From: a virus
Lineage: Duplodnaviria > Heunggongvirae > Uroviricota > Caudoviricetes
Reading direction: 5' to 3' (one strand)
IMG/VR virus record: IMGVR_UViG_2728369553_000009
Location: 1 to 4,406 of that record
DNA length: 4,406 nt
Position 1 is the stretch's first letter, and each line of letters opens with the position of its first letter. The notes beneath the pieces were generated by a model that was not told the origin of the DNA, made no database searches, and saw only the letters and a program-made list of their open reading frames with translations. The position numbers and the translations under genes are program-made. Below are positions 107 through 4,406 of the stretch, piece after piece.

Positions 107-707
107 TTATTTATCCCCTGCAGGAAACCTCTTATACAAAGTCGATACACCAATATCATAGATGATCGCTACCTTCTGGCGAGGAATTCCTGCTGCAATT
201 AATCGTCCGGCCTGCTCCCATTGTTCTGGTGTAAGTTTGGGGCGACGTCCACCAATTCGTCCCTGTGCGCGAGCAGCTTCCAGTCCAGCTTTTGTTCGTT
301 CAACAATCAGTTCACGCTCCATTTCAGCCAGGGCACCCATCACATGAAAGAAAAAGCGTCCCATTGGTGTGCTGGTATCAATTGAATCCGTCAGACTACG
401 AAAGTTGATGCCTCGTTCGCGCAACTCCTCCACCAGCACGACAAGATGCCGCATACTACGCCCCAGCCGATCCAGCTTCCAGACAACCAGAGTGTCACCT
501 GCCGATANNNNNNNNNNNNNNNNNNNNNNNNNNNNNNNNNNNNNNNNNNNNNNATGTCCTGAGCAGTTTTTTCAGTCCCGGCCTTTCGGACTTTGTGCCG
601 CTTATCTTGTCTTCAAAAATCAGCTCGCATCCTGCACAGTTCAGCGCATTACGTTGTAGATCTGTGTTCTGGTCATTTGTTGATACGCGTACATAGCCAA
701 TAAGCAT
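107..707 (-). CDS. pin: Serine-recombinase DNA invertase (Pin/Gin/Cin/Hin family); reading frame interrupted by the N-run at 508..553
   Basis: N-terminal translation from ATG (rc of 705..707) reads MLIGYVRVSTNDQNTDLQRNAL...RPGLKKLLRT, the catalytic N-terminus typical of Gin/Cin/Pin invertases. The C-terminal part reads (L)SAGDTLVVWKLDRLGRSMRHLVVLVEELRERGINFRSLTDSIDTSTPMGRFFFHVMGALAEMERE... with a helix-turn-helix tail ending at TAA (rc of 107..109). SD-like AAGGGGA sits 6 nt upstream of the ATG. If the N-run is ignored the two flanks abut in frame and give 184 aa, the length I recall for Pin. Symbol chosen from family plus e14-like neighbourhood; Gin/Cin cannot be excluded without alignment. 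Confidence 0.9.
508..553. other. Run of 46 N (assembly gap or masked bases) inside the invertase gene
   Basis: Contiguous N characters seen directly. The coding flanks on either side are in different frames relative to each other, so the run length is not a faithful placeholder. Confidence 0.95.
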
Positions 708-761: not shown

Positions 762-787
762 TTTTCATAAACGTTGGTTTGGGAGAA
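762..787. repeat. Left crossover site (pix/gix/hix-like, 26 bp)
   Basis: TTTTCATAAACG-TT-GGTTTGGGAGAA: two 12-bp half-sites around a 2-bp core with the AAAC(C)-NN-GGTTT centre typical of Hin-family sites (about 9/12 match per half-site to the hix consensus as I recall it). Bases 774..788 are a perfect reverse complement of 2634..2648. Confidence 0.75.
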
Positions 788-1132
788 GCGGCAAGAAGGA
801 ATGTGGGGACAGGGGAAAATCAGATACCGGATATGGGAGCATTCGCTTCTGGCTCGGGATGGTTCAGGCTACCAGGTGGATATATTGTTCAGTTTGGCAC
901 TTTTTCAGGAAACACGACTCGCTTTATCAGTGGACACTTCCCTATACCATTCCCTAATCGGCCGATGGTTTCAGTCAGTGTTATGTCTGATGCCGTTCAG
1001 TCAGACCCGTCGAATCCTGCCCCGCAGGTTTTGTCTGTAAATTTTGAACATATCAGTAATTCAGCGTGGCGTGTGGCAACCAGTGATATCTCACAGCAAT
1101 ACAGATTCAGTTATATTTCGATAGGATGGTAG
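776..1132 (+). CDS. Alternative tail-fibre C-terminal cassette (no own start; silent in this orientation, fused to the fibre N-terminus after inversion)
   Basis: Reading from inside the left crossover site the frame is GGT TTG GGA GAA = G L G E, the same residues (..ENLGLGE..) encoded across the right site in the fibre gene. It then continues open for 114 codons (AARRNVGTGENQIPDMGAFASGSGWFRLPGGYIVQFGTF...SYISIGW) to TAG at 1130..1132. The in-frame ATG at 719 has no SD and lies upstream of the site. Confidence 0.7.
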   Translation, partial: GLGEAARRNVGTGENQIPDMGAFASGSGWFRLPGGYIVQFGTFSGNTTRFISGHFPIPFPNRPMVSVSVMSDAVQSDPSNPAPQVLSVNFEHISNSAWRVATSDISQQYRFSYISIGW

Positions 1133-1134
1133 AA

Positions 1135-1575
1135 ATGCAGAAATATATTTTCAGTGCCGATAAAAATGCGTTTTTCCCTGTGGAGCTTAAAATCGCTTAT
1201 CAGGAATCCGGTGAATGGCCCGATGATGGAATCGAAATTGACGACACTGTTGCCGCCGAATTTATGAAGGAAGCACCAGAAGGAAAATACAGAGGTGTCA
1301 TCGACGGAATGCCTGCATGGATTGATATTCCACCGCCAACTCATGAGGAACAAATTGCCGCAGCCGAACTGGAAAAGCAGCAATTGATTAATCAGGTCAA
1401 CGAATACATAAACAGTAAGCAATGGCCTGGTAAAGCGGCGATTGGTCGCCTGAAAGGTGAGGAACTGGCGCAATATAATTTGTGGCTGGATTATCTGGAC
1501 ACACTGGAACTGGTCGATACTTCCGGTGCGCCAGATATTGAATGGCCTACGCCTACGGCAGTTCAGGCCAGATGA
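1135..1575 (+). CDS. Tail fibre assembly protein (Tfa / Mu U-like chaperone), cognate to the silent cassette
   Basis: Translation MQKYIFSADKNAFFPVELK... ends with the conserved Tfa C-terminal motif LDYLDTLELVDTSGAPDIEWPTP. AGGA at 1122..1125 lies 9 nt before ATG 1135. The ORF track starts at ATG 1126, which has no usable SD spacing, so 1135 is preferred; 1126 remains possible. Confidence 0.8.
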   Translation: MQKYIFSADKNAFFPVELKIAYQESGEWPDDGIEIDDTVAAEFMKEAPEGKYRGVIDGMPAWIDIPPPTHEEQIAAAELEKQQLINQVNEYINSKQWPGKAAIGRLKGEELAQYNLWLDYLDTLELVDTSGAPDIEWPTPTAVQAR

Positions 1576-2149
1576 CATCCGGCGCGGTGCTGGTATCTGT
1601 TACCGTCACCGCGTCAATGTAATCCAGCACGGCGTTAAGTCGGGTTGTTTCTGCCTGCGTCAGCTTCCGCCCGGCTCGTAATTTCAGCTGAATCAGACTG
1701 ATGGAAGCCATTGCAGCATCAATCAGCGACTGGCGCTTTACTTCTGCCGCGTCTAGTGCGGCGCTATGCTGTGCCTCGGTATCTGTCACCCATTTTTCAC
1801 CATCCCATTTATCGTATGGTGTTAACGGGGCGATAGTGGTTGTATTTTCAGGGTAATCACCCGGAGCTGTGATTTCTTTCGATTCTCCTGTTTCGGTGCT
1901 ATAGATGATTTCACCGCGATGGTCTGGCACATATTCCCATGAGTTAAAATCTGCAGAACGGCAGATTGCATAACCAGCTTTATGTGTAACTGGTGCATCT
2001 AAACAAGAACATGCCGGGATACCGACGCCAACCGCAAGATATTCAGTTGACGTGGAAATATATTCCCGTGTTTCACCATCGTAGTTATAAACGGTAACAT
2101 CCCCTGCCTTTGTTGCAATAAGCTCACTATTTAATATTGCTTTATGCAT
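1553..2149 (-). CDS. Tail fibre assembly protein (lambda Tfa-like chaperone), cognate to the currently expressed fibre end
   Basis: 198 aa ending ...RLNAVLDYIDAVTVTDTSTAPDVIWPELP, closely resembling the lambda Tfa C-terminus as I recall it (..NRVDTSTAPDIEWP..). Its ATG (rc of 2147..2149) overlaps the fibre stop as ATGA; GAGGG SD lies about 9 nt upstream. Confidence 0.85.
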   Translation of the reverse strand: MHKAILNSELIATKAGDVTVYNYDGETREYISTSTEYLAVGVGIPACSCLDAPVTHKAGYAICRSADFNSWEYVPDHRGEIIYSTETGESKEITAPGDYPENTTTIAPLTPYDKWDGEKWVTDTEAQHSAALDAAEVKRQSLIDAAMASISLIQLKLRAGRKLTQAETTRLNAVLDYIDAVTVTDTSTAPDVIWPELP

Positions 2150-2937
2150 CAGGCTGCCCTCACGATATAGTTAAATGCAATATTACGCGGACGCGTTTCT
2201 GAGGCTGCGACACCTAAACCAGCCACTGATTGTTTATATGTTTTAAAGGTTCCATAATCCGGTGCTGGTAATCCGGCATCGTTTGTGTTTCCTCTTTTGA
2301 TAATGTCAGTGCCACTATTTACCCAGCTTTCATCAAAATAGAAATTAATAGTTGCATCAGTCACAATCGTGGATCTTGACGGTAATCCATGAGCATGATC
2401 CTCCGTTGCATATCCCTGAATACTTAAAATAGAGCGACCTGTATCAATCCCACGCCCGTCATCCCAGCCACGAATAAACTCACCACGTAAATCAGGCAAT
2501 TTATTTGTCGGGTAAACTTTTGCCAGTTCCGGGTATTCTTCAGCAGAAAAAGCTGCACCATTGCATTTCAGCCAGCCTGTTGGCGGAGTGGCTGAAGGCC
2601 ACGGAACAGGGACACCAACAGGTAATGCAGAGCCTTCTCCCAAACCAAGGTTTTCGAGAGCCATTTTCACCGTGCCATCCGATTTGATATCGCCAAACGG
2701 ATTCTTGCGGCTTAATAGCAGCGCACGAAGCGCGGTAAGCAACTGGTCGTGCCGCCCTTTCTCCAGGCTGGCACCGGATGCCTCCACAACGCTGCAAAGC
2801 TCCTCCTGCAACATGTCAAAGTAGTCATCATCCAGATCGGTGGCAGGTGTGCCGGTCTGGGGGTTACCACGGGTAAAACCGTTCTTACCCGCGCCGAACT
2901 TATCCTTCTGCGCGGTTTTCGTGTCTATACGATGCAT
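2149..2937 (-). CDS. Tail fibre protein: constant N-terminus (residues 1-101) plus the currently expressed variable C-terminus containing a phage tail-collar-like region
   Basis: 262-aa ORF with GGAG SD 9 nt upstream of the ATG (rc of 2935..2937). Residues ~110-190 ([38 protein letters not shown]...[19 protein letters not shown]) look like a phage tail collar domain. The right crossover site lies inside the gene at the codons for ENLGLGE. Confidence 0.85.
2635..2660. repeat. Right crossover site (pix/gix/hix-like, 26 bp), inside the tail-fibre coding sequence
   Basis: TTCTCCCAAACC-AA-GGTTTTCGAGAG, the same half-site/core architecture as the left site and inverted relative to it (2634..2648 is the reverse complement of 774..788). 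Confidence 0.75.
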
Positions 2938-2940
2938 GAA

Positions 2941-3525
2941 TTACTCCGGATATTTAAAAATTACGTAGGTATGCGACGGGCAGAGTTTGTTAAGCACACA
3001 CTCGACAACGGTGTCGCCCCAGATACGCAGTGCGGAATCACAGGGATCGCCACATGTCATCCAGGTGGTGTTGGTGGCGGCTGGCATGTTGACCTGCCAG
3101 TAATACCGCCATTCCGGCGCATTCACAGCGTCAGTGCAGGCTGATGAGCAGGTGAACGTGCTTTTGTCGTATCGCGTGATGGTAGCGTCTGGTCTGCCCA
3201 GGGCAGCAAGCTGTGCAAGGTAAAAATCCTCATTGATGCCGCCCGCCAGGTTAACCTTCGCATCCAGTCGTTGCTGACGCTGGCGAAGGGTCTGTGTCCC
3301 TGCGGGAATACATTCATCCGGCAGGCCGCACAGACGCTCCCAGCGGTTTATCAGTTCGGTGGTGGTGCGCGGATCCAGCTCCCGCATCAGGGCATCCGCA
3401 CGCTGATGAACGCGGGTTAATGACGGTGCCGCACCGGCAATCGCCGGATCGCTGGCTGACCACGCCGGACCGGGCGGCAACAGTGCCGATAACAGGCGGA
3501 TGTAATCATCGTTTGTCACGTCCAT
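2941..3525 (-). CDS. Phage tail protein, DUF2313 family (Mu gp48 / e14 YmfQ-like)
   Basis: 194-aa [26 protein letters not shown]... sitting between the baseplate J-like gene and the tail fibre, the gpI position in a P2-type baseplate/fibre operon. GGGGA SD about 8 nt upstream of the ATG. Family call is from recalled similarity and gene order, not a search. Confidence 0.7.
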
Positions 3526-4406
3526 GAAATCGTCCCCAGAACCGCCAGCTCATTTTTCGCAATGGAGATATTGTCCGCCGGGGCAAGCAACTGATGGCTG
3601 TATTCCCCGTTCGCACCGGAAATCGCTTCACTGATACGCGACACCTTCAGTTCTCCCTGCGGATAACCATCACGCAGCAGGAACGAACGCAACTCCGCGG
3701 TGATGGCAGCCCGTATTTCCGGTGTGTCCGGCGTCACGCGGATATGAAAATCCACCGTATGTGCCACCGGCCTAAACACATACAAATCAGAGCCTGCCAC
3801 CGGGGCCAGTGGCTCGATATGTTGTCTTGCCGCCGTTTCCGTTGATTCTTCCGGAATGGGATTAATCAGGTCACTGCTGGCAATCATCACACCGACAGTT
3901 CCCGTTCCCATCCAGTGACGGTATGTCCATGCGCGGGTAATGCCGGGCACTTCTTTAGCCCAGACGACATAGTCCCCGTCAGCCCCGCCCTGCGGCGTCC
4001 AGTAATACCGCTCAATGACGCGGGCGCGCCACGTTTCCAGATCTTCAGTATCGAATCCGCCAGTCAGGGTATCTGCAACACCGGAAGACGGCAGACCATT
4101 CACCGGCGTGACCAGGATTAATGCCGTACCGTCGTCAGCGTTACCGACCGCGCCTGTAGTTGAGCAAGTGATCGGCACACGTAGGACACCACCGGAGCTG
4201 GTTGCATCGGCAGTTGCCGTGTACTGAACCAGGTCATCGCGCTGAATCACGCTCCCGGCAGTCACCTTCAGGCCATCGCTGACGCCTTCCCAGCGCATAT
4301 ACCCGCTGGCAGTCGTGGCCCCCTTGCGCGGACACCGTTTCATCGCAGCATGTCGCGCCAGCCAGGACTCATCGCACAGGTCAGGCAGCATGTTCATTGC
4401 CAGATA
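3516..4406 (-). CDS. Baseplate J-like protein (P2 gpJ / Mu gp47 family); 5' end probably beyond the window
   Basis: Long minus-strand ORF with TGA at rc of 3516..3518 overlapping the next gene's start by 10 nt. The frame stays open from the first ATG (4397) to the window edge and no SD is visible, so the true start is likely upstream. Family assigned from position upstream of the DUF2313 and fibre genes and the general look of the C-terminus. Confidence 0.65.

Follow-up and report, generated by a model that had tools for sequence, protein, structure and literature searches.

A run of 46 Ns in the pinE invertase gene of an e14-type cryptic prophage stands for no genomic bases

The P-inversion module and its interrupted invertase gene

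The stretch of DNA analysed here, 4,406 nucleotides in length and referred to as the window, is the P-inversion module of an e14-type cryptic prophage. The prophage adjoins mcrA and an icd remnant as it does in K-12. The first base of the window adjoins the mcrA start codon, and the IMG/VR contig L089 (3,026 bp) begins at that same base. The window, Ns included, is an exact substring of the GenBank whole-genome shotgun record LRXV01000005.1 (GCA_001571685.1; 25,094 bp; L158). It contains the following features, in window coordinates:

107..507, minus strand: 3' part of pinE, which begins with bases two and three of the Leu codon 52 and runs through codons 53-184 to the stop (translation, PF00239 and PF02796 HTH_7); publicly a 132-aa partial recombinase
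508..553, no strand: N-run, an assembly gap in LRXV01000005.1 that corresponds to 0 bases in the nearest closed genome
554..707, minus strand: 5' part of pinE, codons 1-51 and the first base of codon 52, including catalytic Ser9 (translation, Gin/Cin alignment, PF00239 Resolvase)
618..689, minus strand: predicted Fis-dependent recombinational enhancer, pin coding nt 19-90 (position homology with P1 cin)
769..788, no strand: left crossover site (pix), an inverted-repeat arm (20-nt arms, 95% complementary; inversion boundary in L002 and L007)
769..2653, no strand: invertible P segment, 1,885 bp with the two repeat arms counted, carrying a pair of alternative tail-fibre C-terminal parts along with two tail-fibre assembly genes
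789..1132, plus strand: alternative, currently unexpressed tail-fibre C-terminal segment (gp53-like C domain, PF21882; ORF 719-1132)
1135..1575, plus strand: alternative tail-fibre assembly gene, 146 aa, PF02413
1553..2149, minus strand: tfaE tail-fibre assembly gene, 198 aa
2149..2937, minus strand: tail-fibre gene in the expressed orientation, 262 aa, Collar domain PF07484
2634..2653, no strand: right crossover site (pix), within the tail-fibre gene (20-nt arms, 95% complementary; inversion boundary in L002 and L007)
2941..3525, minus strand: ymfQ, Mu gp48-like baseplate protein, 194 aa
3516..4406, minus strand: 3' part of the baseplate J/gp47 gene; LRXV01000005.1 ends two bases past the window end (4406), inside this gene

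The inverted-repeat arms that bound the P segment contain the core TTGGTTTGGGAGAAG published for e14, where the complete repeat is given as TTGGTTTGGGAGAAGG (PMC12529663). The segment, which occupies positions 723-2607 once the Ns are removed and the flanks joined, is present in reversed orientation in two other sequences (L002, GCA_012279315.1, and L007, GCA_964043915.1) at 99.9% identity and with collinear flanks. Comparison of the two arrangements shows, as far as deposited sequences go, a P-segment switch that operates in nature and flips in this lineage. The tail-fibre gene at 2149..2937 straddles the right crossover site, with its constant N-terminal part outside the P segment and its variable C-terminal part inside. 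Genes crossing the inversion site are inconsistently annotated: the tail-fibre ORF at 2149-2937 runs unbroken for 262 codons, 15 contigs have it called at full length, and the RefSeq annotation of E. coli ECONIH5 covers it only in part (L001 5378-5891), as 'phage tail protein, incomplete, missing C-terminus'. A side observation from three viral or metagenome contigs is a pair of inverted pin-like genes lying ~2.2 kb apart and apparently flanking a tail-fibre-assembly segment; the pairs are at 2783-2825 plus and 4970-5012 minus in L045, at 7195-7237 plus and 9382-9424 minus in L069, and at 1493-1535 plus and 3834-3876 minus in L116. An Rfam scan of the window returned no match.

The window has a single N-run, 46 N at 508-553, and this run interrupts the minus-strand serine-invertase gene pinE, which has its ATG at 707 and its stop at 107-109. 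To the right of the gap (554-707, minus strand) the pinE frame reads MLIGYVRVSTNDQ...PGLKKLLRT and leaves over a single base, T, the complement of 554. To the left (107-507, minus strand) it resumes with TA, the complements of 507 and 506, and continues as SAGDTLVVWKLDRLGRS...PAGDK followed by the stop. When the 46 Ns are retained, the ORF starting from the ATG at 707 terminates after 70 codons (...XXXXIGR, then stop); when they are removed, a continuous 184-codon pinE ORF results, in which bases 554, 507 and 506 form the join codon TTA, Leu52. Among gap lengths from 0 to 60, the frame is kept solely by multiples of three, and 46 breaks it. A preliminary description of this DNA had proposed that the flanks meet in frame and form a gene of 184 aa, and deletion of the Ns in silico bears this out. 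Recomputation likewise reproduced its coordinates, its residue strings for the gap flanks and its join codon, the exception being a Cin string given as ending in TFVV, for which the actual sequence is LRMLSRGDTLVV; the argument is unaffected.

The joined protein has the properties of a complete invertase. It aligns without gaps to Mu Gin (PDB 3UJ3), residues 1-181 to residues 1-181, with an E value of 7e-95, and its amino-acid identity is 79% to Mu Gin and 83% to P1 Cin. Alignment of the flanks to Gin and Cin, a check that the preliminary description had put forward, reveals no indel across the junction, and residues 51-53 in particular are gapless against Gin, Cin and gamma-delta resolvase. 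Leu52, the stretch Gly55-Ser69 and Ser9 are invariant in the Pin/Gin/Cin alignment. Pfam assigns PF00239 Resolvase to residues 3-135 (E 1.5e-51) and PF02796 HTH_7 to residues 138-181 (E 1.3e-14). The catalytic serine is found in the joined ORF only, the 132-aa partial product being without Ser9. Judged by these alignments and domain matches, the joined gene is an ordinary intact 184-aa pinE serine recombinase of an e14-type cryptic prophage.

The 5' coding region of the gene should also carry the recombinational enhancer. P1 annotates its enhancer at cin nt 19-90, and the DNA of pin, cin and gin aligns without gaps over nt 1-108 with a mean column identity of 89%; by position the pin enhancer should lie at about 618-689. 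The gap is 64 nt 3' of the predicted enhancer and leaves it untouched.

Adjacency of the gap flanks in related genomes

The closest complete genome, that of E. coli ECONIH5 (NZ_CP026202.1), is identical to the window at 4359 of the 4360 determined bases. There the counterparts of 507 and 554 are immediate neighbours, and RefSeq, under the name pinE, lists the gene as an intact CDS of 555 nt (WP_016239934.1). The joined protein is 100% identical to the ECONIH5 PinE and, as described above, gapless against Gin and Cin, in agreement with the earlier proposal that no residues are missing between the flanks. A comparison extended to 12.2 kb of LRXV01000005.1 (against ECONIH5 locus L173) gives the same picture, with the gap-flanking blocks at 12384 and 12385 and a total of three mismatches and one indel. 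The sole difference within the window, at 3774, is A versus G and falls in the baseplate J gene, where it is synonymous (Phe TTT/TTC); the A variant is also present in a more distant locus, L061. Beyond the window, mcrA is a pseudogene with an internal stop in ECONIH5 (L001 2167-3000) versus an intact 277-aa HNH call in the source record (L177 4409-5242), and ECONIH5 and the source strain are therefore not identical despite differing by one SNP across the window.

The adjacency extends well beyond this one relative. A junction 60-mer, made up of 30 bases from each flank, has a match covering at least 80% of it in 1,853 of the 5,426 complete E. coli genomes, and it was unbroken in all 12 of the matches listed, one of which was a half-length match. 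A search of IMG/VR, the GTDB species representatives and JGI/ENA metagenome contigs for the two flanks separated by 20 to 50 arbitrary bases found 0 matches; a local control confirmed that N in such a pattern matches a literal N. When the permitted spacing was 0 to 30 bases, the pattern was found at 2, 86 and 52 loci in the viral, species-representative and metagenome collections, respectively. In the loci fetched from the viral, metagenome and genome collections the gap length was 0 in 149 of 149 junction occurrences, and no record in IMG/VR, the GTDB representatives or the JGI/ENA metagenomes has 1-50 bases between the flanks. The Ns at 508-553 stand for no genomic bases. The preliminary description had argued that they were not 46 real bases, and the ECONIH5 sequence together with the 149 other occurrences confirms this.

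The run was not introduced when the window was cut, since the deposited LRXV01000005.1 contains the same Ns, at about 21,194-21,239 in its own coordinates; no second N-run was found in the 14.3 kb of that record examined. The gap has left its mark on the annotation of the record. Its gene calls include a 132-aa resolvase that begins at the first full codon past the gap, and the N-terminal 51 codons of pinE, with the catalytic Ser9, are left uncalled. NCBI lists the same 132-aa sequence as a 'site-specific DNA recombinase, partial' (WP_244494377.1), and LRXV01000005.1 is the one contig of the collection searched on which it occurs. A protein that starts at the gap edge and derives from a single contig indicates that the gap was present in the record that NCBI annotated. 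Two earlier expectations can be refined accordingly. The Ns had been described as a placeholder or a mask: the former term holds, and 'assembly gap' fits better than 'mask' since the Ns sit in the deposited record. Naive annotation had been expected to call a pseudogene: mis-annotation did occur, in the form of a 132-aa 'partial' product without the N-terminal 51 codons and not as a pseudogene label. A search of the literature for LRXV01 or GCA_001571685 found no mention of either.

Origin of the N-run

The most reasonable account of these observations, which we regard as very likely, is that the 46 Ns are a scaffolding placeholder in the short-read draft GCA_001571685.1, that the contigs on either side are truly adjacent and that pinE is intact. 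On this reading, a short-read E. coli draft fragmented at prophage paralogues. Read pairs would then have joined a terminal contig of 3.86 kb to the contig that truly adjoins it, with the spacing between the two written as an estimated 46 where the true value is 0. The break itself is probably due to near-exact repetition of this stretch of pin in the paralogous invertase genes of other prophages. We infer that the number 46 came from a paired-read distance estimate and that the repeat caused the break.

Several observations are consistent with a repeat at this position. The number of genomes with the junction 60-mer is about double that for either flanking 60-mer, a single genome having up to five copies of it, and ECONIH5 matches the window at eight places. 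The two close paralogues retrieved without reference to the junction, L164 and L168, have as their longest exact match to this pin a block (170 and 65 nt, respectively) that spans the junction. The gap sits in the stretch of pin most exactly conserved among paralogues, and this is probably the cause of the contig break. A k-mer size was sought from the exact-match blocks shared with paralogues and none was derived.

The record also resembles other cases of scaffold gaps of estimated length, in which an N-run likewise lies in a deposited WGS record while its flanks are adjacent in a near-identical closed genome, and in which the adjoining gene is likewise annotated as partial at the gap edge. 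The conventional N-run for a gap of unknown length is 100; here it is instead the odd number 46. A counterpoint is that exact abutment of contigs, with neither overlap nor loss, is not produced by every assembler. Moreover, no other assembly in the collection searched breaks at this base, so a break here is not something that the sequence brings about in general.

The 46 Ns could also have arisen if an adaptor, linker or primer artefact of exactly 46 bp had been assembled into the contig and then masked one for one at submission, in a genome that has no bases here. Adaptors and linkers used for libraries come in sizes that include 46, and N-masking of internal contaminants is a known submission practice. 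The adjacency of the flanks in the closed relative would also fit, as it implies that whatever stood between them was non-genomic. An artefact inserted exactly between two adjacent genomic bases, with neither loss nor duplication, would however be an unusual chimera, and nothing in the data indicates an adaptor. We consider this origin improbable; if it were true, the practical outcome would be the same, with pinE intact.

A reading with a different outcome is that pinE is truly disrupted in the source strain by a real insertion, either a short one of 46 bp or a multicopy IS whose length was underestimated. Genes of cryptic prophages are often broken, and ECONIH5 itself has an mcrA with an internal stop and a frameshifted baseplate gene. 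There is also a precedent of a kind in E. coli O157 FDAARGOS_293 (NZ_CP022050.2; L012), where an IS3-family terminal inverted repeat (TGAACCGCCCCGGG...) abuts a truncated pin paralogue between bases 2530 and 2531, the equivalent of the position between 507 and 508 of the window. This junction was found in 1 of 5,426 complete genomes, in a lambdoid prophage context and with the other side deleted. It was the weakest of the matches within the E-value limit, and any 30-nt match with its anchor at the query's left end is bound to stop at the junction; selecting matches in this way favours that exact junction position, and the agreement with 507 and 508 is probably a coincidence helped by the selection. 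If the source strain nonetheless carried an insertion, this and the O157 element together might mark a recurrent hot spot at which Pin-type invertases are silenced and the tail-fibre/StfE switch is locked, an idea to which we attach very little weight.

The evidence from the window and its relatives argues against disruption. The contigs end without IS or other foreign bases and without a target-site duplication, stopping instead at adjacent wild-type bases. ECONIH5, which differs by 1 base in 4,360, has nothing between the flanks, and no record in the collections has 1-50 bases there. An estimate of 46 bp is a poor fit to a 1.3-kb IS. The O157 junction is single, lies in another prophage and is accompanied by a deletion, and so gives no sign of a hot spot. 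Insertion of an IS was rejected on the absence of IS bases and of a target duplication at the contig ends and on the occurrence of the O157 junction in only 1 of 5,426 genomes, and a real insertion of any kind in pinE of the source strain is very unlikely.

Least likely of all is that the Ns were added after deposition by the preparers of the window or of a collection to mask real bases: the species-representative collection is described as having a few stretches masked as N runs, but a different collection has the NCBI record with these 46 Ns as well, the 'partial' protein at the gap edge would not exist at NCBI had the record had bases there, and such masking would imply 46 real bases that are absent from every related record.

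Significance and comparison with known inversion systems

The scaffolding placeholder, our preferred explanation, makes the feature an assembly artefact within a known gene of a well-known system, and there is no new biology in it. Its value lies in data quality only: it would be a mistake to score this pinE as truncated or inactive, and annotation and surveys that rely on draft genomes will wrongly count such invertases among the partial or broken ones. According to a paper from 2025, a phage-defence phenotype in which StfE2 blocks T2 adsorption is under the control of both Pin-type invertases and e14 P-segment orientation (PMC12529663). With Pin inversion tied to phage defence, surveys of intact versus broken pin in draft genomes that are biased by gaps of this kind matter somewhat.

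The e14 PinE system and its P segment (stfE/tfaE/tfaP/stfP) provide the closest comparison. The gene order is that of ECONIH5, namely icd remnant, mcrA, pinE, P segment, ymfQ and baseplate J, and K-12 e14 has 96% DNA identity to the window over 81% of its length. The P segment and the variable parts of the tail fibre are an allelic variant here, ~4% diverged from K-12 e14. Biologically there is no difference between the two; what sets the present copy apart is that its record carries an assembly gap.

The textbook features of the Gin/Cin/Hin/Pin systems, as read from this locus and its relatives, are found here as a catalytic domain with Ser9, an HTH domain, inverted sites and both orientations of the segment. 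The layout is the same as for Gin of Mu and Cin of P1, with the invertase adjoining an invertible tail-fibre segment, and the enhancer inside the 5' coding region that is annotated for P1 cin has a counterpart in pin predicted by position homology. The C-terminal tail of PinE differs in length from those of Gin and Cin. The invertible segments differ in cargo and in size, from ~4.2 kb for the C segment of P1 and ~3 kb for the G segment of Mu to ~1.9 kb for the P segment described here.
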